DNA of 64,000 nt from a virus (Duplodnaviria > Caudoviricetes). Location of the stretch: positions 1 to 64,000 of IMG/VR virus record IMGVR_UViG_3300028591_000074. One strand, 5' to 3'. The position numbers were made by a program, and so were the translations under genes. The notes beneath the pieces were generated by a model. The model was not told the DNA's origin. It did not search any database and saw only the letters and a list, made by a program, of their open reading frames with translations. Of the stretch, positions 4,426 to 22,740 are shown one piece after another (within the stretch, counting starts at the first letter, position 1; each line of letters opens with the position of its first letter).

Positions 4426-5301
4426 TCACTCTCCTACGTAAACCAATTTCTCAATATAATCTCTACCTTCCCCACTGAAAATAGGAATGTTCGTATCTAA
4501 AATCCAACCGTTTTCAGTCTTAATACAACATGTTCCACGCTTCTCCGGAACAGAAAAATCATTCCAGTTAATTCCTTTCTGCTCATGCAACATTTCCTGA
4601 ATATCATTGCAACTCTTACCATGAAGTTCCTTATGAGAGAAATTCGCTTGACCTGCCATCTGGATAGAGTTCCGAGTTGCATCAAGCTGTCTCCAATAGA
4701 AATAGTTTGTTACTTCTTCCTTTGGAATATTGAAACACCGGGAATCGAACATAGCATGTTTCGATACTCGATCATAGACACCACATAATTTGCAGAAATC
4801 TTCGTTTCGGTTATAGAACAATCCATGATCCTCTGTAGTCCAATCATCCGTGAGTTTTCCAAGTTCTTCTTCCATAGCCTTTACTCTTGCTGGGTATCCA
4901 ATTTTATCATCATTTATGAAGAACATATGTGAAAGTAGATCAAATACAATATTAAACGACTTGGTCGCCATAGAAGCTGAAATGCTACAAATCTTCTGAA
5001 CCTCATTATCAAACCATGCTTGACTGTTTAGATCACTATAATCTACAAGCAAAAGTGATATCTCATCAGATTGTGTATACCCTAATACACACCCTTGAAT
5101 GTTCTCACATAAAGACTTCATTGTTTCTTGCATAGATCTCATAAGGATCTGGTCAAATGGTTTTTGAAATCCACGTGTATATGAATGGAATGATTTACCA
5201 TCGATTCTTATTATTACTGGAGTTCTCCGAGTAAGTTTGTATTTTGTGATTGTTTCATAATTATTCTTCATTCTAATTCCGATATCATCATGTACTGGCA
5301 T
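4426..5301 (-). CDS. thg1: tRNA(His) guanylyltransferase Thg1-family / 3'-5' polymerase
   Basis: RIDGKSFH, YTQSDEISL, FDSR, WRQLDATRNS, GINWND motifs. Confidence 0.93.
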   Translation of the reverse strand: MPVHDDIGIRMKNNYETITKYKLTRRTPVIIRIDGKSFHSYTRGFQKPFDQILMRSMQETMKSLCENIQGCVLGYTQSDEISLLLVDYSDLNSQAWFDNEVQKICSISASMATKSFNIVFDLLSHMFFINDDKIGYPARVKAMEEELGKLTDDWTTEDHGLFYNRNEDFCKLCGVYDRVSKHAMFDSRCFNIPKEEVTNYFYWRQLDATRNSIQMAGQANFSHKELHGKSCNDIQEMLHEQKGINWNDFSVPEKRGTCCIKTENGWILDTNIPIFSGEGRDYIEKLVYVGE

Positions 5302-5319
5302 AAGTATTCACCTCGTTTC

Positions 5320-5859
5320 TTAAATTCTGTACTTCAGATGCATGTAAGCCTTACATATTCTGTTTGCATGAAAATTTTCGCCATATTGATACACAATAGG
5401 AACTACAAACCCATCGGTAGCGAGTAGCATCTGCATACATACATCTTGTGTTCGTGTATATCCTTGTTCTATGCTTATGATGATTCTATGCATCCAATCT
5501 GTAGGAAATCTCATCTGTATTCTAGCAATATTTCTTCCTAACTCATACATGCAGATTGGCTGATCGCTACTGCTATTTGCAAAATACATTGACAGTATGT
5601 CTGCTTGTTCTAACCACCGAAACTCCCACGAAATCTGGGTTGATGCTGCAGATGGATCATTGATAGGAAAATTGTCACGTCTCGGATTGAACAAAACAAG
5701 ATCATCAAGTGAACCTGATTCAGGAGATGTATCCCAGTCCTGAAGTGTACGTATAACATTAGACTGCCAATCAGAACAATTTGTGATTCCACCTGCAAGA
5801 AACACTAAGATGTCAGTTCCTTTAGCAGTGTATTGTTCAGGTGCTGTAATTATCTTCAT
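5320..5859 (-). CDS. nucleoside 2-deoxyribosyltransferase-like protein
   Basis: VFLAGGI...WQ...NPRR...QISWE...PICMYELG pattern. Confidence 0.75.
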   Translation of the reverse strand: MKIITAPEQYTAKGTDILVFLAGGITNCSDWQSNVIRTLQDWDTSPESGSLDDLVLFNPRRDNFPINDPSAASTQISWEFRWLEQADILSMYFANSSSDQPICMYELGRNIARIQMRFPTDWMHRIIISIEQGYTRTQDVCMQMLLATDGFVVPIVYQYGENFHANRICKAYMHLKYRI

Positions 5860-5896
5860 ATATCGTCTCCTTACTTTAGAATTCTAGAACAACTAC

Positions 5897-6409
5897 TCAA
5901 TCCTCATAAATAGAATCTATTATGTTGCACTGGAACATTATCTCTTTAGCCCAGTTACGAATCTGCTTCACATCTGAAGTAGTCTGATTTGGTACACATT
6001 TCTGAATAGATTTCTTGATAGCATCTGTCAGTTCATCAATCCGTCTGTATGCAACAATGTGTGCAGAAGTCAGATTCGTTGACGCATCATGTAATTCTTT
6101 ATCGTGCAAAAGTTTATCTTGCTGTACAAACCAACTATTTCCAATAGTGTCTTTTGGTTTACCAACATAAAATATAGTTACCAAAAAATCATTCTTTTCA
6201 GAATCAAATCTGCAAATGGCACCGAGTTCACCAGATGAAAGAAGACGTAAGTTATCACCGTCGCAAGCAATGATTATATGTCCACATTCACAACCTACAG
6301 TAATTGAATCGTTCTTTTGTTCAGAATATATGTAAGTTTCTTCCGGAAAAATCTCATTACAACCAGTTACAAAAAGATTTCTAGATGTATTATTTCGAAT
6401 TAGCATCAA
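5897..6409 (-). CDS. hypothetical protein
   Basis: ORF track. Confidence 0.65.
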   Translation of the reverse strand: MMLIRNNTSRNLFVTGCNEIFPEETYIYSEQKNDSITVGCECGHIIIACDGDNLRLLSSGELGAICRFDSEKNDFLVTIFYVGKPKDTIGNSWFVQQDKLLHDKELHDASTNLTSAHIVAYRRIDELTDAIKKSIQKCVPNQTTSDVKQIRNWAKEIMFQCNIIDSIYED

Positions 6410-6421
6410 ATCACCACCTTA

Positions 6422-6799
6422 CTAAAATTCAACATCAATGCTGAAAGAAAATGTACAATCACCGGAAACATATCCGTAATTATCATATTCTTCTAAGACC
6501 TCTAGTAGCTTACACTTCGAACAAGCACAATAGTTTTCATAACGATCACACTCGCTATCAACATGGTCATCGGAACAATTCTTGCCAGTATGCTTAAATA
6601 ATGGAAGAATGATGTCGCGGTGTTCTGCAATGTGGCGAACTAAATCATCGGACTCTTCCTGTTTCAAATTTTGTAGATCATTATGCAATTCTGCAATAGT
6701 TGCAGATATAGAATCCATTGTCTTTTCATGATATTTCGTCAATTGGATTTTCTTACCTACCAATTCATCAATCTGCTTGCGAATTTCATTTTCTGTCAT
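6422..6799 (-). CDS. hypothetical protein (coiled coil + Cys cluster)
   Basis: ORF track, GAGGT SD. Confidence 0.7.
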   Translation of the reverse strand: MTENEIRKQIDELVGKKIQLTKYHEKTMDSISATIAELHNDLQNLKQEESDDLVRHIAEHRDIILPLFKHTGKNCSDDHVDSECDRYENYCACSKCKLLEVLEEYDNYGYVSGDCTFSFSIDVEF

Positions 6800-6812
6800 G
6801 ACCTCACCTACC

Positions 6813-7874
6813 TCAAAATATTATATCAGAATCGTCAATTTTTGTATTTTTCAGATACTTTTCCGTGTATAATACTCCCCAATTTGCTTTCATCAGGAAC
6901 TCATCAATTCGATTGTAATCCGGTTTTGGTGGAAGTACGGAATGTTCTTTTGCATGTTCCAATCTGGATTCATAATCGTGAACCATATCAAAGAATTCCT
7001 TTGTAGGCTTCCCATCTTCACCAAGATACTTACCGTTTCGAATATCCATGAGCAAATCATGTTCTTTCTCACGATAAGTTACAATCTTACCATCAAGTAA
7101 CAAATCTTCACACATCATATAAAGACGAAGCAGATGCATAGAATGTTTTGCAATCTTACCATGTGCAAGTGCATGATCATTCCGCTTACTGTTCTTATTA
7201 TACTCACGTATAACTGTATTAAGGGAATTAAGTACAGATGCAAGATCTTCTGCCGGATAATCTTCTACATTAAGATCAAGAACAATCTTACCATCTTTCA
7301 GCTTCACATCTACATCATGAATGTTGTGCTGATATTCTAAGGTATCATGCATACCATTCAAAGTTTTTACAATGTGTGCATTATATTCTTCTTCAGACAT
7401 TGCAACCAGTGATTTCTGCTGAAGCCGATACATCTGCTGATTTGCGTATCCCATAAATGATCCGATACATTTATTAGACAAGAACATATCGTAGTTGTTC
7501 AGGAGATCTACGCCCAAGGAACTCATATACAAGTAGTGTTCTGGTTTTAACCCTAGCATCTCAATTACATTAGGGTTGCAGTTAGTAAGCAGACTAACCA
7601 CTTTCTTCAGTGAGTAAATCGTTGTGTCTGTTGGTTCATTACAAACCTGCTCAAATCCCCTATTAAGTAAAATATCCAGTGCAGAATTCAATGCTATCCC
7701 TCGAATATCAACATCTGAGGTTTCAATATTTGTACCGTAGGCGTAAGAACCGCCGAGTCCAACAAGAATAGGATCATGCAATTCCGGAGTTGTATCTAAA
7801 AATTCATACGGAGATTCATCAACAGAAATATTTAGTTTCCTCAGAGAACCTATTACATATTCTTTAAGTTTCAT
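6813..7874 (-). CDS. Pol-beta superfamily nucleotidyltransferase (RNA-repair associated, RlaP-like)
   Basis: GGSYAYG...SDVDIRG catalytic motif, NPNVIEML, KHSMHLLRL; overlaps Pnkp-like gene. Confidence 0.82.
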   Translation of the reverse strand: MKLKEYVIGSLRKLNISVDESPYEFLDTTPELHDPILVGLGGSYAYGTNIETSDVDIRGIALNSALDILLNRGFEQVCNEPTDTTIYSLKKVVSLLTNCNPNVIEMLGLKPEHYLYMSSLGVDLLNNYDMFLSNKCIGSFMGYANQQMYRLQQKSLVAMSEEEYNAHIVKTLNGMHDTLEYQHNIHDVDVKLKDGKIVLDLNVEDYPAEDLASVLNSLNTVIREYNKNSKRNDHALAHGKIAKHSMHLLRLYMMCEDLLLDGKIVTYREKEHDLLMDIRNGKYLGEDGKPTKEFFDMVHDYESRLEHAKEHSVLPPKPDYNRIDEFLMKANWGVLYTEKYLKNTKIDDSDIIF

Positions 7875-10089
7875 CTTTCACCTCCGTAGTCTTCATGTAT
7901 TTGTAAAACTCATTTCTCAAGTAAATGATATCTCTTGGTATCAAGTCTCTCTGCTCTCTTGTTTCCGCATCATTGTATAACTTCTGACAGAACGAATAGA
8001 ACATGTTAGCTTCGGGAGTAGTAAGTGACCCAGTTCTCCGGAAATATCCAGATCTAAGAACTTCATGTGCTACACCCCTCATAAATTTCCAAAAGTTGTA
8101 GTACTGAAGTTTTATCTTAACCATTTTACCTTCTGCATCTTCTATAACAAAACCCTCAATGATTTTTCCGTTGTATTCATAACACTCAGAAGTTACTTCG
8201 TTATACCAATCAACAAAATCACCCCAGTTAGCAATCTCAAATGCCTTTTCTTTGACCTTAATCTTGAGTGCAGATCCGATATTCAGAAGATTTTCGTAAG
8301 GAATCTGCTCAAACTTCATTGTGTTTTTCACTATAGTGAGTAAAAACAGTTCTGATTTTGGATACTCAATAACATGAGGATCATTCTTCATATCTACACA
8401 TTCAAAAACAAATGAAACATCCTTGTCCTTACATATTTCTTTCATCCTATCTCTAGAAGGTTCAGACATTTTAGAGAACAGCATATTTTTGAATAGTTCG
8501 GCATAGTTTCCTGTAGGATTAGATTTTGTAGTTATGAAAAGATCGTCATTATCTGCATCATAGGATACAATTCCGAGGAACCCATTTTCCTTGACATAAC
8601 AAGTTACAGGAAAATTCAATGAATACTTCAACATGTCGAACTTTGTTTCCAGCATTTCGTTGATATTGAAGAACTTATCATATGCCCGAGCAGCAACTTT
8701 CATACGTAACATGTCAATATAAAGGCCTCTTGCCTTTACTGTCTGCTCGTTCCAAACCTTGTCATAGAAAGCATCTCGTGTGAAATTGAATGAGGAAATA
8801 TTGCCGAACTGCTTCTCAGTTACATGCTTGTTTGCTCGCAGAGCTAACACCACATCTGCAATGCTACTGATGTTGAGTTCAGTCTGTGTAGCAATTTTCT
8901 CAGGTTCTTTAAAAACATTGTTTTTGATCTCAACTTCATTAAACCCATTATGTGTCAGTTCGAGAATCCGGAGATGTCCACCAAACTCAACATCATTCTC
9001 AAGATCATAAACTCGGCCTCTAAGTTTCATAGGAGAAGCCTTTGTGTTTCTGTGTCCAAAAATCTGATACTGAGAATCTGAAGTAGTTCTCATCCAGGAA
9101 TCTGCTACAGTTTCGTAATCGTCATAATTACCAACACCTTTAATCATCTGCTCTGTGGACATGAAGCTCAAGTTATCCGGAAGTGCTGCAATACCTGCAT
9201 GAGATACAAATACATCCTTATTATCATACTTGTACCATGCACACTGTCCCAACTTGCGATACAGCTGACGAATCGCTTTTACATCAACATGTGCTTCCTC
9301 AAGCTGCTTCCGAGTAACCAGTTCGAATTCTTTGGACCTTCCTACTCCACCATGTGCATAGATCCAAAGCCATCTTTCATGGTTGCCTTCGAGAACAAGT
9401 ACATTCTTCTTGTTAATAATCTGAGTGAACCAATTTACAACTTCAACATTCTCAATTCCGCGATCAATCAAATCGCCTACGAAGATGTACATTGTGTTGT
9501 CATCAAGTCCATCTTTGAAATACTCCATAAGTGCTGTATAGCAACCATGGATATCTCCAACATGCACAACCTTATCATAACTTGAAAAATCAACCTGACG
9601 CATCCAAATAGTATCAAGCTCCTCAGGCTTGATCACCTTTACACCGGAAGGAATCTTCTGAGTACCAAATCTTGAATACATCTTATCAATGACATACTCC
9701 GGAACCTGCTTGAGTACAGGTCTAGATGCATTCCGTCGCTTACACTCTTCGATAGGAAGATCTGTCATGTCAATACAGAAAATTCGGTAACGATAGGTAT
9801 CGCACATCTCTTTGTAACGGTTGATTTCAACTGTCTTAGAGTTTGTAGCATCAATAACAGTGAATTCACCATTACGCATACGAATCTCCAAAAGTTTGAA
9901 AAGCATGTTCCAAACATCCTTTTCATTCTTCTGACTGATCTCTACCCTGCCATCTGCGGTCTGCTGTGCTGACTGACACTGAAGCCGAATTTCATCAGCT
10001 GAAAGTGCATAAGGACGCAATCCATTCTGATCGATGAATGTTGATTTTCCGCACCCAGGTGCTCCTCTAAATAACAAAAGTATTCTCAT
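7864..10089 (-). CDS. Pnkp-like RNA repair enzyme: polynucleotide kinase + metallophosphoesterase + RNA ligase
   Basis: GAPGCGKS P-loop; GDIHG/GDLIDRG/GNHE phosphoesterase; KENG and EGFVI...KIK ligase motifs. Confidence 0.88.
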   Translation of the reverse strand: MRILLLFRGAPGCGKSTFIDQNGLRPYALSADEIRLQCQSAQQTADGRVEISQKNEKDVWNMLFKLLEIRMRNGEFTVIDATNSKTVEINRYKEMCDTYRYRIFCIDMTDLPIEECKRRNASRPVLKQVPEYVIDKMYSRFGTQKIPSGVKVIKPEELDTIWMRQVDFSSYDKVVHVGDIHGCYTALMEYFKDGLDDNTMYIFVGDLIDRGIENVEVVNWFTQIINKKNVLVLEGNHERWLWIYAHGGVGRSKEFELVTRKQLEEAHVDVKAIRQLYRKLGQCAWYKYDNKDVFVSHAGIAALPDNLSFMSTEQMIKGVGNYDDYETVADSWMRTTSDSQYQIFGHRNTKASPMKLRGRVYDLENDVEFGGHLRILELTHNGFNEVEIKNNVFKEPEKIATQTELNISSIADVVLALRANKHVTEKQFGNISSFNFTRDAFYDKVWNEQTVKARGLYIDMLRMKVAARAYDKFFNINEMLETKFDMLKYSLNFPVTCYVKENGFLGIVSYDADNDDLFITTKSNPTGNYAELFKNMLFSKMSEPSRDRMKEICKDKDVSFVFECVDMKNDPHVIEYPKSELFLLTIVKNTMKFEQIPYENLLNIGSALKIKVKEKAFEIANWGDFVDWYNEVTSECYEYNGKIIEGFVIEDAEGKMVKIKLQYYNFWKFMRGVAHEVLRSGYFRRTGSLTTPEANMFYSFCQKLYNDAETREQRDLIPRDIIYLRNEFYKYMKTTEVKDET

Positions 10090-16312: not shown

Positions 16313-16350
16313 AAAAAAAATCTGTGATGATATACAACCATCACAGATTC
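16313..16350 (-). terminator. terminator ending tRNA array
   Basis: AATCTGTGATG/CATCACAGATT hairpin + T-tract. Confidence 0.85.
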
Positions 16351-16354
16351 TTAC

Positions 16355-16443
16355 CGCCTACGGACAGACTCGAACTGCCACACCGGATTTCCGATTACTC
16401 AGAGATTAGCAATCTCCTGCCTTCCCATTAGGCTTACATAGGC
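16355..16443 (-). tRNA. tRNA-Ser(GCT)
   Basis: GGAGA-TTGCTAA-TCTCT arm, long variable arm. Confidence 0.9.
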
Positions 16444-16450
16444 AATATAG

Positions 16451-16539
16451 TGGGCCGGGTAGGATTCGGACCTACAATGTTTACCACATGGGTGACGGAT
16501 TTACAGTCCGCTGACTTCACCAATTTGTCGCACCGACCC
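16451..16539 (-). tRNA. tRNA-Tyr(GTA)
   Basis: GCGGA-CTGTAAA-TCCGT arm. Confidence 0.9.
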
Positions 16540-16544
16540 ATAAT

Positions 16545-16631
16545 CGCCGTGGCAGAGAATCGAACTCTGGCTTCCATAACAAGGAAGGACTGTTTTCAGG
16601 ACAGTGTAGTGAGCCAACCACAATCCACGGC
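16545..16631 (-). tRNA. tRNA-Ser(TGA), atypical (C33, A8)
   Basis: ACTGT-CCTGAAA-ACAGT arm, long variable arm, G73. Confidence 0.75.
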
Positions 16632-16656
16632 ATTTATACAACTTATTTTGAGAAAT

Positions 16657-16728
16657 GGTGACTACTGGGAATCGAACCCAGATCAATGGAATCACAATCC
16701 ACTGTATTAACCATTGTACTATAGTCAC
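16657..16728 (-). tRNA. tRNA-His(GTG)
   Basis: GTGGA-TTGTGAT-TCCAT arm; C73; no encoded G-1. Confidence 0.9.
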
Positions 16729-16730
16729 AG

Positions 16731-16804
16731 TAGTCGCAGTGGGAATCGAACCCTACATCTCCGGATTGAAAGCCCGGTGTCGTAAACCATTTGACTATGC
16801 GACC
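16731..16804 (-). tRNA. tRNA-Glu(TTC)
   Basis: CCGGG-CTTTCAA-TCCGG arm. Confidence 0.9.
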
Positions 16805-16811
16805 ATTATGA

Positions 16812-17036
16812 TTAAATTGATTTCCTTATGATAATATCATCTATTGCTACACCAAAGGCATCAGCAAGGATTACCATGTTATCTATGGTTGGCATGGAAT
16901 CACCACGGAACCACTTGAATATTGCCTGCGGAGTACCGAACCCGAAGATACCTTGAACATCAGATGTTTTCATATTCTTAGACTTCATGATATTCTTTAT
17001 ATTTGTTCCAGTTGCTACTGTATCTATTACCATCAT
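16812..17036 (-). CDS. XRE-family HTH transcriptional regulator
   Basis: TPQAIFKWFRGDSMPTIDNMVILA; start at 17036 behind AAAGGGG. Confidence 0.85.
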   Translation of the reverse strand: MMVIDTVATGTNIKNIMKSKNMKTSDVQGIFGFGTPQAIFKWFRGDSMPTIDNMVILADAFGVAIDDIIIRKSI

Positions 17037-17066
17037 GATGCTATATCCCCTTTCAGTAATTTTGAG

Positions 17067-17142
17067 TACCCACGATGGGATTTGAACCCACACCATATAC
17101 ATACTTTAAATATGTTGCTTCTTCCTATTGCGCTACGTGGGC
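17067..17142 (-). tRNA. tRNA-Leu(TAA), short variable arm
   Basis: ACATA-TTTAAAG-TATGT arm, A73. Confidence 0.8.
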
Positions 17143-17147
17143 AGATA

Positions 17148-17236
17148 TGCCGGATAAGGGACTCGAACCCTTATGAGAGTTTTATACCTCAGTAGATTTT
17201 GAATCTACCATGTCTAACCAATTTCATCAATCCGGC
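17148..17236 (-). tRNA. tRNA-Leu(CAA)
   Basis: GTAGA-TTCAAAA-TCTAC arm, long variable arm. Confidence 0.9.
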
Positions 17237-17242
17237 AAATAG

Positions 17243-17317
17243 TACCCCCGGCAGGAATCGAACCTGCATATCTACTGATCCTAAGTCAGTCGCCTTTACC
17301 AGTTTGACCACGAGGGC
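17243..17317 (-). tRNA. tRNA-Leu(TAG), short variable arm
   Basis: ACTGA-CTTAGGA-TCAGT arm. Confidence 0.88.
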
Positions 17318-17321
17318 ATAG

Positions 17322-17359
17322 AAAAAGACCATCTATACGCTGTGTACAGATGGTCTTTT
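17322..17359 (-). terminator. attenuator terminator A
   Basis: AAAGACCATCTGTAC-ACAGC-GTATAGATGGTCTTTTT. Confidence 0.85.
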
Positions 17360-17395
17360 AGTTCTTCTGAAGAGTATATTTCAATAGATGAACTA

Positions 17396-17497
17396 TCAAA
17401 TCTTACCATTATCTGCACACGCAAATTGGAAAGCCAATGATGAATAGAGGCTTTCGGAAAGTTCGCTATGCAGATATAATGATCTGAATGTAGTCAT
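17396..17497 (-). CDS. leader peptide A (MTTFRSLYLHSELSESLYSSLAFQFACADNGKI)
   Basis: AAAGGGG SD; 16-residue run only of S/L/Y/H/E; followed by terminator. Confidence 0.85.
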   Translation of the reverse strand: MTTFRSLYLHSELSESLYSSLAFQFACADNGKI

Positions 17498-17525
17498 CGC
17501 TGTTACCCCTTTATTTGATAATTCG

Positions 17526-17554
17526 ATTATAATATAAATTCTTATAAATTGCAA
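17526..17554 (-). promoter_or_regulatory. sigma-A type promoter for tRNA block A
   Basis: TTGCAA-17-TATAAT. Confidence 0.75.
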
Positions 17555-17573
17555 CTATACTATTGGTATATTT

Positions 17574-17611
17574 CAAGTTAGTTGCAAGTTAGTTGCAAGT
17601 TAGTTGCAAGT
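17574..17611. repeat. 11-bp tandem repeat (CAAGTTAGTTG) x3.4
   Basis: direct reading. Confidence 0.9.
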
Positions 17612-17684
17612 ACAGACGGAGAGATTCGAACTCTCAACCAAAGGCTTAGAAGACCTTTGCGCTGATCCATTGCGCCACGCCTGT
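17611..17684 (-). tRNA. tRNA-Arg(TCT)
   Basis: AAGGT-CTTCTAA-GCCTT arm. Confidence 0.9.
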
Positions 17685-17690
17685 ATGAAT

Positions 17691-17762
17691 CTCCCACGGC
17701 AGGACTCGAACCTGCAACCACTCGGTTAACAGCCGATTTCTCAACCATTGAGATACGTGGGA
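17691..17762 (-). tRNA. tRNA-Asn(GTT)
   Basis: TCGG-CTGTTAA-CCGA arm. Confidence 0.9.
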
Positions 17763-17767
17763 ATACA

Positions 17768-17837
17768 AGTACCGCATCAGAGTTGAACTGATCTCTATAG
17801 TTTTGCAGACTACATGCTTCCCGGAAGCAGACGGTAC
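17768..17837 (-). tRNA. tRNA-Cys(GCA)
   Basis: GTAGT-CTGCAAA-ACTAT arm, U73, short D loop. Confidence 0.82.
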
Positions 17838-17844
17838 ATTATAT

Positions 17845-17915
17845 CAGCCGATTCTGGAATTGAACCAAAATCTGATGAGTCAGAATCATCTGTGTTACCA
17901 TTACACCAATCGGCC
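17845..17915 (-). tRNA. tRNA-Gln(CTG)
   Basis: GATGA-TTCTGAC-TCATC arm. Confidence 0.9.
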
Positions 17916-17954
17916 ATGCAACTTATTTGTCCAACACGTACAGACAAGTTATAG

Positions 17955-18025
17955 CAGGTCCTGCACGTTTCGAGCGCACACCATCAAGGTTGGAGCTTGA
18001 TATGCTACCATTACACCAAGGACCC
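17955..18025 (-). tRNA. tRNA-Trp(CCA)
   Basis: TCAAG-CTCCAAC-CTTGA arm; T-loop CTCGAAA. Confidence 0.85.
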
Positions 18026-18033
18026 GGAGAAAG

Positions 18034-18106
18034 TGGATGTGGAGAGGTTTGAACTCTCGGCTTGATGCTTAAGAGGCAACTGCTCTTCCAACTGAGCTAC
18101 ACATCC
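18034..18106 (-). tRNA. tRNA-Lys(CTT)
   Basis: TGC-CTCTTAA-GCA arm. Confidence 0.88.
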
Positions 18107-18112
18107 ATATAC

Positions 18113-18173
18113 AGGACGCATTTTGGTTTCAATGATTAAAAGTCATTTCCAAAAGATTTGCTGTATGCGTCCC
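18113..18173 (-). ncRNA. armless tRNA-Lys(TTT)-like hairpin
   Basis: GGACGCA/TGCGTCC closing stem, TTTTGG/CCAAAA, AATGA-CTTTTAA-TCATT anticodon-like arm; no D/T arms. Confidence 0.55.
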
Positions 18174-18176
18174 AAA

Positions 18177-18248
18177 TGGGTGTGACAAGATTCGAACTTG
18201 CGGTATACAGGTTAAAAGCCTGTTGCCATACCACTTGGCTACACACCC
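18177..18248 (-). tRNA. tRNA-Lys(TTT)
   Basis: ACAGG-CTTTTAA-CCTGT arm. Confidence 0.9.
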
Positions 18249-18253
18249 AAAAA

Positions 18254-18327
18254 TTCAAGGTGGTGGATTCGAACCACCGGCAATCTGCGTATCAGACAGA
18301 CACTCTAACCAACTGAGTTAACCTTGA
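18254..18327 (-). tRNA. tRNA-Ile(GAT)
   Basis: TCTGT-CTGATAC-GCAGA arm. Confidence 0.9.
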
Positions 18328-18328
18328 G

Positions 18329-18400
18329 TGGTCTCGGATAGTTTCGGGCTATCGACACTCTGGGCTTCAACCAGATGCTCTTCCTCTGAGCTACGAGACC
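18329..18400 (-). tRNA. tRNA-Phe(GAA)
   Basis: TCTGG-TTGAAGC-CCAGA arm; T-loop CCCGAAA. Confidence 0.85.
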
Positions 18401-18406
18401 AAAATT

Positions 18407-18450
18407 AAAAAGCCATGAGGCTGATGCTGACTGTCAGACCCATGACTTTT
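18407..18450 (-). terminator. attenuator terminator B
   Basis: AGTCATGGGTCTGA...TCAGCCTCATGGCT-TTTT. Confidence 0.75.
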
Positions 18451-18486
18451 CTTCTCTATAAGGTATAAGATAGAAAATATGTTAGA

Positions 18487-18588
18487 TCATGTAAGACAGT
18501 CTATAGATTCAGCACAATTAAACCAGTTTTTATAACAAAACTGATTTCTAATGTTCTTAATCTGGTTGCTAATAGACTGATACATCAT
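18487..18588 (-). CDS. leader peptide B (MMYQSISNQIKNIRNQFCYKNWFNCAESIDCLT)
   Basis: AAGGAAAGGAG SD; N/Q/I/K/R/F/C/W core; followed by terminator. Confidence 0.85.
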   Translation of the reverse strand: MMYQSISNQIKNIRNQFCYKNWFNCAESIDCLT

Positions 18589-18620
18589 CTTCTTATTATC
18601 TCCTTTCCTTATAGATGTAG

Positions 18621-18693
18621 TTGCAGGGACCGGATTTGAACCGGCAACTTTCAGTTTATGAGACTGAACTGCTTACCATTGCATCACCCTGCG
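18621..18693 (-). tRNA. tRNA-Met(CAT), C1xA72 mismatch (initiator-like)
   Basis: TCAGT-CTCATAA-ACTGA arm. Confidence 0.85.
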
Positions 18694-18699
18694 ATAAAC

Positions 18700-18770
18700 T
18701 TGAAAATGTCAGATTCGAACTGCGCCTCATGCTCCCAAGGCAAGCGTGCTACCATTACACCACATTCTCA
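18700..18770 (-). tRNA. tRNA-Pro(TGG)
   Basis: TGC-CTTGGGA-GCA arm; ends approximate. Confidence 0.8.
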
Positions 18771-18778
18771 ATAATTAA

Positions 18779-18850
18779 CGATCTAGCAGAGAATCGAACT
18801 CTGATCTCCGGATAGACAGTCCGGTGTAATAGCCTTTATACCACAAGACC
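18779..18850 (-). tRNA. tRNA-Asp(GTC)
   Basis: CCGGA-CTGTCTA-TCCGG arm. Confidence 0.9.
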
Positions 18851-18854
18851 GTAT

Positions 18855-18925
18855 AGCTTCCACTCGGATTCGAACCAAGATTTACTGATTACAAATCAGT
18901 AGTCCTGCCATTAGACGATAGAAGC
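18855..18925 (-). tRNA. tRNA-Thr(TGT)
   Basis: ACTGA-TTTGTAA-TCAGT arm. Confidence 0.9.
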
Positions 18926-18930
18926 AGAAT

Positions 18931-19705
18931 ATTTGTCTTGAGATTACAGACAAACGTAACACTCATTAAAACCCTTATTTGTTAGGCTTATATCCACGTA
19001 CCTTTCAATACGTTAGTGCTATGCGTACCTTTAAGGTGGCTATACCTTCATAATTCAGAACTACTCGACCTACTTTTCGACCTTAAAAGAGTTGTACGGA
19101 CTCTCCTAATGTCTACTTGTTCGATCAAACAGGTTCACCTTGCGAGTTCCCCTGTTCCACATTACATTACTGCTGTGGACTTAACGCATTTTCATTCTGA
19201 ACCCCTACTGACTTTTGCTTTTTGGCGATTTTTGTTGGACTTGAACCAACTACCTTTTGTTTAGAAGACAAATACTCTACCCAATGAGCTAAAAAATCAG
19301 TATGTTGGATGTAGATGTGCAGTAGGTTTAGTTTCGTAATCTTTTGAACTACAAAATGCTAAACACCTACGATGTACGTTCCTTTGCATCGTACTTGTAC
19401 TGCCATTTCTGACTGGATATCACCCTTGTTTGCTAAACTCGGATTTATTACCCATTAAATGTCTAACTACCATATCCGTTTGTTTTGCATGTTAGTTAGC
19501 CCTTGCGGAGCCTTGTTCCCATCAGTTGACCTAAAACAAGTTTCTCACTAACCAAACAAATATAGCATTGAATCCACCTATGGTGAACTTAGATTCCTTT
19601 TCAGAATCTATTAAGACAAGTATTGCATACTCTTACCGTTTCCGGCGATAGGCTTACCTTCCTACCTTTCGATATATTACTATACCATATAGGCGTATGC
19701 ACCAT
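18931..19705 (-). ncRNA. large structured ncRNA, GOLLD-like, with embedded tRNA-Arg
   Basis: ~775 nt non-coding, many hairpins with GNRA-type loops (GCAA, GAAA), terminal TGTCTGTAATCTCAAGACA hairpin, inside tRNA array. Confidence 0.55.
19223..19298 (-). tRNA. tRNA-Arg(TCT), second copy, CCA encoded
   Basis: TTTGT-CTTCTAA-ACAAA arm; GATTTTT/AAAAATC-G-CCA. Confidence 0.85.
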
Positions 19706-19709
19706 TGTA

Positions 19710-19782
19710 AGCAGATAGTGAGAATCGAACTCACATCCTTAGTTTGGAAGACTAATATAATAAACCGTTATACGATACCTGC
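19710..19782 (-). tRNA. tRNA-Gly(TCC)
   Basis: TTAGT-CTTCCAA-ACTAA arm. Confidence 0.9.
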
Positions 19783-19854
19783 ATGTGCGAGTGAGAGAAG
19801 TGCCTGTTCCCCTCACTCAGATTTTAATTTTTTGTAATCAGTAGAAACTGATAG

Positions 19855-19926
19855 TAGACCATATAGGAGTCGAACCTATATCTCTTCATTCGTAGTGAAG
19901 TGTTCTATCCGTTATACTAATGATCT
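19855..19926 (-). tRNA. tRNA-Arg(ACG)
   Basis: CTTCA-CTACGAA-TGAAG arm. Confidence 0.9.
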
Positions 19927-19928
19927 AG

Positions 19929-20001
19929 TGCAGATAGTAGGGGTTGAACCTACAACCACTTCCTTGTAAGAGAAGCACTCTCCCAGTTGAGTTATATCTG
20001 C
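19929..20001 (-). tRNA. tRNA-Val(TAC)
   Basis: CTTCT-CTTACAA-GGAAG arm. Confidence 0.9.
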
Positions 20002-20007
20002 AAATAG

Positions 20008-20080
20008 TGGAACCGATGGGGATTGAACCCACAACCTTCTGCTTGCAAAACAGATGCTCTCCCAATTGCGCTACGGCCCC
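20008..20080 (-). tRNA. tRNA-Ala(TGC)
   Basis: TCTGT-TTTGCAA-GCAGA arm; G3:U70. Confidence 0.92.
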
Positions 20081-20087
20081 ATAATGT

Positions 20088-20127
20088 AAAAATCCGTCTT
20101 ACCCTATGTAGGATATAGACGGATTCT
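20088..20127 (-). terminator. attenuator terminator C
   Basis: AATCCGTCTATATCCTACATAGGGTAAGACGGATTTTT. Confidence 0.85.
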
Positions 20128-20160
20128 TCTATGAGGTGTAACTTATGAAGAGATTTTCCA

Positions 20161-20331
20161 CTACCTTCGTCTATATCCTATGTACTTGGCGACTTTTCGA
20201 TTCCATCCAGTTCTTCCTGTGGCGATAGCATCTGGATCTACCGGGGCATCAAATTTGCATACGAAACTAAACCCGCGTGTTGCAGGATGATCCACGATCA
20301 TTGTGAAGTTGATAGTTTCGTAAATCTTCAT
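20161..20331 (-). CDS. leader peptide C (56 aa, MKIYETINFTMIVDHPATRG...DAPVDPDAIATGRTG...RRR)
   Basis: AGGAG SD before ATG 20331; rich in A/V/R/G/T/D/P/M; followed by terminator. Confidence 0.82.
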   Translation of the reverse strand: MKIYETINFTMIVDHPATRGFSFVCKFDAPVDPDAIATGRTGWNRKVAKYIGYRRR

Positions 20332-20412
20332 AATAATTCTCCTAAAAAATTTAGTGCCTATATCTCCATCCGATAACACAAAATGGAGAGACAGGCACTT
20401 CTCTCTGGTAGT

Positions 20413-20441
20413 ATAGTAACATATTGTGGATTAGATGTCAA
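20413..20441 (-). promoter_or_regulatory. sigma-A type promoter of tRNA array
   Basis: TTGACA-17-(TG.)TACTAT. Confidence 0.75.
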
Positions 20442-22740
20442 CAGGAAATTTATTTGGATTCAAATATTCCCATCGTATAGTTCCAGAATCGTAAACTCTT
20501 ACATATCCATGTTCTTCCATAATCTGCTTTTCAGTCTTTGTTAGATCAAGAATTTCATTCGGAAACAGCCTGTGCATATTCGATTTCTGACAAGACACAC
20601 GGTTAAGATAAGTATCATCTGAAAGATTTACCCACACATATCTTGGGGAAGAAATCCGATTTGGTACAAAACATAATTTATCATACATGTTTCCACGTGT
20701 ATGTGCCACATCTGAATAAGATATAATCCGATCATATTCGTAATGATTTATGAAATACTTCAGCAATTTCGAAGCACCACCAACAACAGATGTATTCAGT
20801 TTGCTACAAAATCTTGAAAGTTCCCAAGTATTGCTATCAAATTTCTTACCAAGTGTCTTACGAATATGATTAAATGTCATTACTGATACAAGTTCATTTG
20901 TATCATTTGTAAATAAACCTAATCGTACTTTAGCAGACATACTACCTTGTCTATGATTCTGGTTCAAGAAAGCCTTACACGTATTAAAATCTATTTCAGA
21001 TATATAACACCTTCTTGCATAAATCTTAGTATCCGTCTTACCAAGCAAAGCAGCAATCATTGATTTTATAATGTTTTTCCGGTAAGTCCATTCATACCCA
21101 AAAATGTGGAACAGAAAGATACCATTCTGCTCTGCAAGAACAGATTTCATCTGATGATATTTATAATCCTTAGGTTCATTCGTCCATGGATCACCAATAG
21201 AGGAATTATGCGTAATAGTAGGATTACATTCAATCCCAATTTTATAATCCGGTAAATAGATATCTATTTCATATGGAGAAATTAGATTTCTATCATGCTG
21301 AATTATGATACAATTTGGATTGATAGATGTAATCATATCTATAACGTCCAATTCAGCCATAGATTTATGATAAGAAATCATATGCTGCAATCCATTGGTG
21401 TTCACATGCGCACTTATGGTCGAAATAGTTACACCAGTATCCCTTGCCACCTCTGTAAGTGTCGGCTTATGTTTATATGTAGTTTCAATAAACACTTTTG
21501 GGTTATTTCGAAATTCCATAAACACATCTACTTTAGATGGATCAACAATTTTAGACTCCATATTGTATTTAGAAGAATTGTACCACTCTGTACCATACTT
21601 AGCCAGATTTGTAGATTTCTTCCTCTCAGTCAATCCTGGAATATGTGCAATATTGTCGACACCATATTTATCTAATAACGACTTCTTAATATATTCCTGA
21701 ATCATCGGTGATGAAAATACATTCTCAACACCGTAACGATTCAAATTCGTTACTTTTATTTTATTTCTAACATATTCAGAAGCTATTGCATATTCATTTC
21801 CATACCTATCCAAATTTGTTTTTCGTTTTCTATCAGAAATAACTTCACTATGTGCTGGATTATCTACACCATATTTTTCGACCATAGTGGATTTATATTT
21901 TTCATCAAGAATTTTGGAGTCCCTAAAAATTCCACCATATTTCTCAAGTTTCGTTGTAGTAATCTTATCGCGCAATTCCGGACTTGCCATGCCAAATCCA
22001 CCATATCGCAATTCTGAAGTATGTCTCGCTTTCTCTAAAACTTCTGGATCACATGTTGGAGACTTACCACCATATCGTTCTAAATTTGTATCATCTACTT
22101 TCTTACGGATTTCAGTATTCTTTAATGGACTTGTAACACCATATCTTTCAAGCATAGTAGAATTAAATGATTCTTTAAACTCATCTGTCTTCGAATAATG
22201 ATCTACTCCATAACGGTTCCTAATAGTTTCCCTAATTTTGCCTTTGCCATAATCTGATGCAAACACATTTGTAGCACCATATCGTTTTAAGGACGTTTCT
22301 TGAATCCTTTTCTTCCTACATTCTTCAGAACAAGCCTGTGGTCCAATACACATTTCCTTAATCTCTACTTGCTTTCCACAAACAGGACATGGACCATAAT
22401 GCTTATCATAACAATACTCACGTCTTGCTGAATCAGTCTCAAACTCCTTACCACAACATTTACAAATCTTCTTAAAATGCTGAAGTTCACTTGCATTTGA
22501 TACACCATATCTACGTTGCATAGTTGCCTGTGTCTTTACAACATTATCTTTAGCAATACCAGATACTTTCATATAAATTCCGCGACATTTGGATGAACAT
22601 GTTTTCTGAGTATATGGATGATGTAATTCAAATTCTTTTCCACAAACAACACAAACAGCAGTATGGCAATCTGCACACACTGCTGTTTTACGTATAGCTT
22701 CAAACTCTTTTCCACATCTAACACAGATGTATTTTTTCAT
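20431..22740 (-). CDS. Hef-like homing endonuclease with Zn ribbons and TNLxRYG repeats
   Basis: CxxC ribbons, many (T/M)xx(K/R)YGV repeats, YEIDIY...IECN nuclease motif, ELSRFC...GGASKL C-terminal domain. Confidence 0.7.
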   Translation of the reverse strand: MKKYICVRCGKEFEAIRKTAVCADCHTAVCVVCGKEFELHHPYTQKTCSSKCRGIYMKVSGIAKDNVVKTQATMQRRYGVSNASELQHFKKICKCCGKEFETDSARREYCYDKHYGPCPVCGKQVEIKEMCIGPQACSEECRKKRIQETSLKRYGATNVFASDYGKGKIRETIRNRYGVDHYSKTDEFKESFNSTMLERYGVTSPLKNTEIRKKVDDTNLERYGGKSPTCDPEVLEKARHTSELRYGGFGMASPELRDKITTTKLEKYGGIFRDSKILDEKYKSTMVEKYGVDNPAHSEVISDRKRKTNLDRYGNEYAIASEYVRNKIKVTNLNRYGVENVFSSPMIQEYIKKSLLDKYGVDNIAHIPGLTERKKSTNLAKYGTEWYNSSKYNMESKIVDPSKVDVFMEFRNNPKVFIETTYKHKPTLTEVARDTGVTISTISAHVNTNGLQHMISYHKSMAELDVIDMITSINPNCIIIQHDRNLISPYEIDIYLPDYKIGIECNPTITHNSSIGDPWTNEPKDYKYHQMKSVLAEQNGIFLFHIFGYEWTYRKNIIKSMIAALLGKTDTKIYARRCYISEIDFNTCKAFLNQNHRQGSMSAKVRLGLFTNDTNELVSVMTFNHIRKTLGKKFDSNTWELSRFCSKLNTSVVGGASKLLKYFINHYEYDRIISYSDVAHTRGNMYDKLCFVPNRISSPRYVWVNLSDDTYLNRVSCQKSNMHRLFPNEILDLTKTEKQIMEEHGYVRVYDSGTIRWEYLNPNKFPVDI

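Follow-up and report, generated by a model that had tools for sequence, protein, structure and literature searches.

Leader-peptide attenuators regulate amino-acid operons, as known for trpL, hisL and pheL and, in multivalent form, for the thrL and ilvGMEDA leaders; in the E. coli pheM-pheST attenuator a leader peptide places a component of translation under the control of charged transfer RNA (tRNA), with a single amino acid being read and a synthetase as the output. The mechanism is restated in PMC9413887, and His leaders have been predicted in Firmicutes (PMC2965389, PMC9413887). Here we describe a tRNA gene array in a 64,000-nucleotide stretch of phage DNA (positions 1 to 64,000 of IMG/VR record IMGVR_UViG_3300028591_000074, hereafter the window), which, with a probability of about 0.85 as judged from its sequence, is controlled by three multivalent ribosome-dependent transcription attenuators. 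Like those of amino-acid operons, the cassettes comprise a Shine-Dalgarno (SD) sequence, a short open reading frame (ORF) rich in control codons, a 1:2 protector (in two of the three leaders, A and B), a 2:3 antiterminator and a 3:4 terminator, and stalling is proposed to cause read-through; unlike them, the regulated genes are tRNAs, each leader covers 5-8 amino acids in a mixed run, three cassettes tile 20 amino acids, two of them probably in series, and the carriers are a phage and mobile islands. Compared with pheM-pheST, the output is tRNA and not a synthetase protein, and several amino acids are read instead of one. Because the output is tRNA, the locus stands outside the narrow family of attenuators of biosynthetic and synthetase operons: the genes downstream of the leaders are tRNAs, the GOLLD RNA and one helix-turn-helix (HTH) gene, and neither enzymes nor synthetases. 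The mechanism is known, its target class, tRNA genes, is new, and a literature search, made mostly outside subscription papers, found no description of an attenuated tRNA operon.

Two further systems invite comparison. T-box riboswitches also couple antitermination to tRNA status in Firmicutes, but there the RNA binds uncharged tRNA directly and no ORF takes part; they are ruled out at the leaders, where Rfam gave no T-box match at E up to 1. The trn operon of Anabaena PCC 7120 and related L-arrays are horizontally spread spare tRNAs, silent until translation is impaired and co-regulated with rtcB (PMC8421152). Control there is exerted at initiation, through promoter repeats and the TrcR repressor (PMC10272220, PMC8421152), and attenuation, leader and terminator are nowhere mentioned in PMC8421152; codon-specific sensing, as proposed for the phage array, is absent from the Anabaena operon.

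The first 64 kb of a 253.5 kb contig make up the window; the start of the contig is repeated at its end, giving a genome of ~236.6 kb with a G+C content of 36%. Matches to sheath, portal, terminase and polymerase assign it to a jumbo myophage, and rumen-type metagenomes are the source of most of its relatives. Strong SD sequences, promoters of sigma-A type and the closest homologues of the HTH gene in the array make a Lachnospiraceae-type clostridium the probable host. A preceding interpretation made from the letters and ORFs alone (the sequence-only reading) had counted 26 tRNAs for all 20 amino acids in three blocks, and this is borne out by ARAGORN, which places all 26 genes on the minus strand between 16354 and 20080; inspection of the anticodon loop turned the program's 'Phe AAA' at 17066-17142 into Leu UAA. 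The array comprises the following parts:

20413-20441, minus strand: promoter P1, sigma-70/sigma-A type (TTGACA, 17 nucleotides, extended -10), kept ahead of leader C in relatives
20161-20331, minus strand: leader ORF C, 56 codons, SD at about 20343-20338, segment 2 at 20180-20168
20086-20125, minus strand: terminator C, 5' arm at 20121-20109 with segment 2 or the 3' arm as alternative partners
18620-20080, minus strand: tRNA block C (Ala, Val, Arg, Gly, a further Arg inside GOLLD, Thr, Asp, Pro, Met; ARAGORN)
18487-18588, minus strand: leader ORF B, 33 codons, SD at about 18610-18600, the entire ORF folding as a 1:2 hairpin
18407-18450, minus strand: terminator B
17610-18400, minus strand: tRNA block B (Phe, Ile, Lys, Lys, Trp, Gln, Cys, Asn, Arg; ARAGORN)
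17526-17554, minus strand: promoter P2 (TTGCAA, 17 nucleotides, TATAAT) for block A, conserved in relatives, with a matching promoter in the bacterial homologue L037
17396-17497, minus strand: leader ORF A, 33 codons, codons 6-12 pairing with codons 26-31 (1:2 protector)
17323-17359, minus strand: terminator A
16354-17317, minus strand: tRNA block A (Leu, Leu, Leu, Glu, His, Ser, Tyr, Ser; ARAGORN and loop inspection)
16316-16352, minus strand: terminator closing the whole array

Each leader has an SD upstream and a hairpin with a U tract downstream. That every block is headed by such a cassette had been seen before; a scan of both strands of the 236.6 kb genome for an SD, an ORF of 12-62 codons and a terminator confirmed it and returned exactly these three, one per block. 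Six tRNAs, including two Ile-UAU calls and Gln-UUG, are scattered outside the window (C1 68291-85466), and the genome-wide scan found no cassette at these six genes between 68 and 85 kb.

The codons of a leader match the tRNAs of the block behind it. Own-block codons make up 16 of 32 in leader A (9.2 expected), 21 of 32 in leader B (11.0 expected) and 32 of 55 in leader C (22.6 expected); permuting the amino-acid labels among the blocks gives a P of about 1e-5, 16 of the 20 amino acids are densest in the leader of their own block (P 7e-5), and frame 0 has the highest own-block share among the six frames in all three leaders. The matches are gathered in runs (codons 6-21 in A, 16/16; codons 8-25 in B, 17/18; codons 28-42 in C, 14/15), and the block purity of the leaders is reached by 0 of 1742 proteome windows for A, 0 of 1742 for B and 2 of 983 for C. 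Codon choice in the leaders does not depart from that of the phage, and codon diversity is not above phage usage. The earlier statement that each leader is 'dominated' by its own block holds as an enrichment in all three and is overstated for leader C, where block-B amino acids are at background (17 vs 16.6) and those of block A are depleted (6 vs 15.8, P 0.0014). One could regard such a match as chance recognised after the fact, with constitutive terminators standing between transcription units and the ORFs being accidental, since short ORFs are common and blocks B and C each span at least a third of all codons; the permutation result, conservation in 28 leader/block pairs and recurrence in an unrelated phage (see below) speak against this explanation, as does the delimitation of the blocks by terminators and not by leader content, and we consider it highly improbable and largely refuted.

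Beside SD, short ORF, function-related control codons and intrinsic terminator (3:4 helix and U tract), a 2:3 antiterminator that excludes the terminator is found, strong in C and A and moderate in B. The complementarity between ORF end and terminator 5' arm, which the sequence-only reading had ascribed to all three leaders, is strong in C (-20.5 kcal/mol, shuffle P 0.004) and A (-18.5 kcal/mol, shuffle P 0.002), and in B it is weaker and uses the loop (P 0.14, or 0.017 with the stop region included). In relatives 94% of the 2:3 helix of C remains paired and three pairs have both partners exchanged (compensatory; 0 of 500 shuffles), and that of A is 98% paired with two compensatory pairs, the helix structures for these tests having been derived from the window itself, so that the controls favour them. 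The distance from stop codon to U tract is 54-76 nucleotides in 27 of 27 leaders examined. In A and B the leader is also predicted to fold back on itself (z -4.5 and z -5.1), its early codons pairing with segment 2, and this modelled fold is the classical 1:2 protector, a feature absent from the sequence-only reading; at leader C the protector is missing (1 of 15 nucleotides paired).

A nascent-RNA model of A leaves segment 2 free for the terminator arm when the ribosomal A site stands at codons 5-16, in the matched run, and not free without a ribosome. In the model of B, with the RNA upstream of the ribosome blocked, no terminator forms while the ribosome is at codons 2-25, and it forms from codon 27 onwards, a switch that is model-dependent, being visible when all upstream RNA is masked and not visible by equilibrium folding with a footprint-only mask. 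In these folding models the ribosome positions freeing segment 2 coincide with the matched codons in both A and B. For leader C the model predicts that the 2:3 helix forms by default unless the ribosome gets to the last ~nine codons.

Leaders are retained, with their SD, at ~20 phage loci (loci carry L numbers in the following), and among those that can be aligned non-synonymous divergence (pN) is below synonymous divergence (pS), for example 0.14/0.40, 0.11/0.46 and 0.15/0.34. The permutation P is about 1e-5 in L002 and L018, 2e-5 in L005 and 1e-3 in L016. Starting from the HTH gene of block A, arrays were located in genome records of Lachnospiraceae, Eubacterium, Ruminococcus and Butyrivibrio, in which the blocks are homologous or re-shuffled, each with leader and terminator; a search of bacterial genomes by leader C peptide patterns gave no match. 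These bacterial arrays look like chromosomal islands and not like prophages of the present type, because the portal family of the phage is absent from four of the genomes and the sampled flanks of the array in strain AC2029 carry transposase, transporter and metabolic genes. A DNA search found no similar array in cultured phages, and no tRNAs lie near the sheath in three sheath-gene relatives.

Related phages and Lachnospiraceae-type chromosomal tRNA islands together provided 28 leader/block pairs, compared over a fixed span from codon 2 to 11 before the end. Amino acids of the block are present in the leader span in 165 of 168 cases (120.6 expected), and non-block amino acids are under-represented (188 of 392, 270 expected). 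Within families leader and block co-vary (169 concordant vs 143 permuted, P 5e-5), as they do in the phages only (45 vs 36.7, P 0.01), although these P values are optimistic and independence is overstated, since the loci are related. Where tRNAs have been lost or relocated the leaders change with their blocks, with one clear exception. Single loci illustrate the point: in L005 Glu and His are missing both as tRNAs and as codons; in L070 block B is down to Phe, Trp, Cys and Asn, and the leader span lacks Ile and Arg; in L057, where Trp has shifted to block A and Met to block B, the leaders follow; and in L059 all 12 amino acids of a 12-amino-acid block are present in the leader. AUA is confined to the three B-type leader spans whose block has Ile-UAU, and UUR is absent wherever Leu-UAG is the only Leu tRNA. 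A pN below pS, and the invariance of some residues within each family, would also suit ORFs that encode functional small proteins or arrest peptides sensing a drug or metabolite via the nascent chain. Their composition, however, follows that of the tRNA block and shifts along with relocated tRNAs, comparison with arrest peptides of the ErmCL and TnaC type gave no NCBIfam match for the leaders, and the hairpins of A and B would bury the start region once made and limit peptide output, so that we hold this explanation to be very unlikely.

As judged from sequence, the leader-tRNA design of the rumen phage is also present in the unrelated phage phiCbK. In the annotated gp083, 41 of 44 codons belong to its own block (P 7e-13); for a second leader the figure is 22 of 31 (P 0.004). 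Both lie between a promoter-like site and an annotated terminator.

The sequence-only reading had likened the geometry to trp/his-type attenuation and had named permutation of leader codons against downstream anticodons, conservation of the ORFs, folding of the leaders and co-variation with block content in homologous arrays as checks; all four have been run and support that view. We infer that the leaders are translated and that switching, feedback and serial order proceed as follows. Host RNA polymerase would start at P1 or P2 and a ribosome load on the leader. If all codons are read fast, the ribosome would reach the end of the ORF and cover segment 2, the terminator would form and the block stay off. 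If an aminoacyl-tRNA is scarce, the ribosome would lag, segment 2 would pair with the terminator 5' arm and the polymerase would enter the block, whose tRNAs would serve the lagging codons until the switch closes again, a negative feedback. Owing to their protector, A and B would open only if a ribosome loads and stalls; C, because it has no 1:2 protector, should also open when untranslated or on general translation failure, and block B would follow in series behind C.

Several observations weigh against attenuation by leader translation, in addition to the relatedness of the loci. In C and A, full equilibrium favours the terminator at almost every ribosome position; the finished terminator being the equilibrium fold, any switch must therefore be kinetic, which is also the case for textbook attenuators. 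Six of the 27 leaders, all of them bacterial, show no significant 2:3 duplex. Leader A of L016, which is probably a recombinant, is without Glu and His despite tRNAs for them in the block and still has Tyr where no Tyr tRNA is present; three B leaders retain Gln codons in the absence of tRNA-Gln; co-variation is not significant for family C alone (P 0.14); and a short third leader of phiCbK, before Glu/Asp, gives no match (3/19). Coupling of transcription and translation is a concern for the presumed Lachnospiraceae host, B. subtilis being uncoupled; runaway transcription is seemingly not dominant in C. difficile (PMC8237595), and His leaders have been predicted in clostridia (PMC9413887). Lastly, the case is built on sequence, and the RNA data are assembled contigs, uninformative on ends or levels: shares in the RNA runs are <0.2, with one contig across terminator C (19816-20181) and one over leader B (18444-18591), and these were not counted as evidence, as runs X2 and X6 seem to be one and the same data set, and carried-over DNA may be present.

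Full independence of the three switches is unlikely because of block B. From P1 (20441) the order is a 5' hairpin, leader C, terminator, block C with the GOLLD RNA, leader B, terminator and block B; from P2 (17554) it is leader A, terminator, block A and the final terminator. No promoter is recognisable ahead of leader B, either in the window or in L037, where the promoter before A is clear. Block B probably stands in series behind C, needing read-through at both C and B, because it has no recognisable promoter and leader C excludes block-A amino acids only. Avoidance of block A together with background content of block B in leader C is compatible with this order and no proof of it. An enrichment of leader C for block-B amino acids, expected as support for serial logic, was not found (17 vs 16.6).

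Further elements of the array have to be considered here:

20354-20405, minus strand: hairpin at the transcript 5' end, first 15 nucleotides complementary to 19793-19807; near-invariant in 9 loci including two bacterial islands
19789-19817, minus strand: hairpin in the Arg-Gly spacer with the complement of the transcript 5' end
18935-19695, minus strand: GOLLD RNA with embedded tRNA, Rfam match 19371-18935, 5' end probably at 19695
17577-17609, minus strand: three 11-nucleotide direct repeats upstream of P2, a possible operator; nowhere else in the genome, 1-3 copies in relatives
16812-17042, minus strand: XRE-type HTH gene within block A

The duplex 20405-20391/19807-19793 amounts to about -37 kcal/mol (9 loci), as against two local hairpins, is near-invariant in phages and bacterial islands, and may form an RNase III stem or exert trans-acting feedback. 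Such a pairing spacer element, the HTH protein or a processive antiterminator might switch the terminators, the ORFs merely keeping the fold or tuning basal read-through. The near-invariant complement and the presence of the HTH gene and direct repeats within the array would agree with this, and a promoterless block B would be more easily expressed with processive antitermination; since it leaves the block-specific amino-acid content, the frame dependence and the co-variation with tRNAs unexplained, we deem it unlikely. In a TrcR-type layout a repressor binds direct repeats over the -10 box and start site; the phage repeats are upstream of the P2 -35 only and form an inverted repeat with the P2 -35 region. 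In many clostridial (Lachnospiraceae-type) genomes, homologues of the XRE HTH gene are located within tRNA arrays or immediately ahead of them, sometimes right after an attenuator terminator.

The Arg UCU tRNA at 19223-19298 lies inside the GOLLD RNA and has a different anticodon in relatives. Presence of GOLLD varies among close phages, and contigs in rumen RNA libraries cover it, with an adapter-bounded end at 19695. A tRNA-like element at 18112-18173, with a short ACAGCAA arm and an anticodon loop that varies among relatives, was overlooked by ARAGORN, and similar elements stand near DUF2828 genes in the L059 and L067 regions. A DUF7487 homing-endonuclease-like gene (20431-22740), found in some relatives only, ends on the P1 -35 box. 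In L015 a 122-nucleotide spacer between two tRNA groups (9823-9944) ends in a terminator-like hairpin, without SD-ORF or Rfam match. IS605/TnpB genes occur at L024 4626-5753 and L071 7616-8866, at sites that lack most of block A or most of what follows Val in the array; in L071 the leader persists.

The natural trigger of the attenuators is most likely the loss of usable host tRNA by cleavage or decay, which is the least supported step. Of the earlier proposal of on-demand supply after tRNA depletion, the attenuator part is supported, and an anticodon nuclease as the trigger stays a suggestion, because an attenuator responds to slow decoding whatever its cause, and bacterial chromosomal islands carry the same cassettes. 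The switch alone cannot tell cleavage from starvation or overload. Genes for RNA repair, however, accompany the arrays:

4426-10089, minus strand: RNA-repair genes, PNKP-RNA ligase (7864-10089), RlaP (6813-7874) and Thg1 (4426-5301); context, outside the attenuated units
L037 1333-2556 and L038 2193-3497: RtcB, directly after block B
L057 1434-2651: RtcB, just upstream of the array

The three phage genes lie 6-12 kb downstream of the array; the RtcB genes within or next to three bacterial arrays are possibly controlled by leader B. Repair genes and RtcB near arrays suggest damage to tRNA, which would agree with the rtcB-linked Anabaena array (PMC8421152) and with the countering of host anticodon nucleases by phage tRNAs (PMC10264068), a source which concerns tRNA sequence and not regulated expression and gives a likely purpose of phage tRNAs. 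We tentatively suggest, at somewhat less than even odds, that the leaders form a surveillance panel for the host tRNA pool, in which loss of any tRNA species to a nuclease of a defence system or toxin would stall a ribosome at the matching codon and switch on the replacement block, an inducible counter-defence common to unrelated phages and chromosomal tRNA/RtcB islands. With the same mechanism and a different ecological trigger, the main signal might instead be amino-acid starvation or translation overload in infection and not tRNA destruction, extra tRNA lifting the decoding capacity. Classical attenuators sense uncharged tRNA (PMC9413887), all 20 amino acids are covered, exceeding the targets of any one nuclease, leader codon choice does not depart from phage usage, and general translation stress induces the Anabaena tRNA operon (PMC8421152), all of which would agree with such a signal; added tRNA, on the other hand, would be no remedy for a missing amino acid, RNA-repair genes co-occur in phage and islands, and isoacceptor-level tracking for Ile and Leu fits the sensing of tRNA species. 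We regard starvation or overload as possible, with roughly one chance in three.

The role of large tRNA sets in phages and mobile islands has been open for decades (PMC10264068). With a codon-reading switch before them, these tRNAs would be a conditional reserve, spare tRNAs probably made only when ribosomes slow on matching codons, and whatever opens the terminators would be their purpose. The supply of tRNA would feed back directly, codon by codon, on the transcription of tRNA genes. The cassettes could serve as ready-made reporters of tRNA depletion, and cultured carriers exist in phage phiCbK and in the bacterium Lachnospiraceae AC2029, whose array is partly decayed. If the leaders are indeed a surveillance panel, their codon lists would record the tRNAs under attack.

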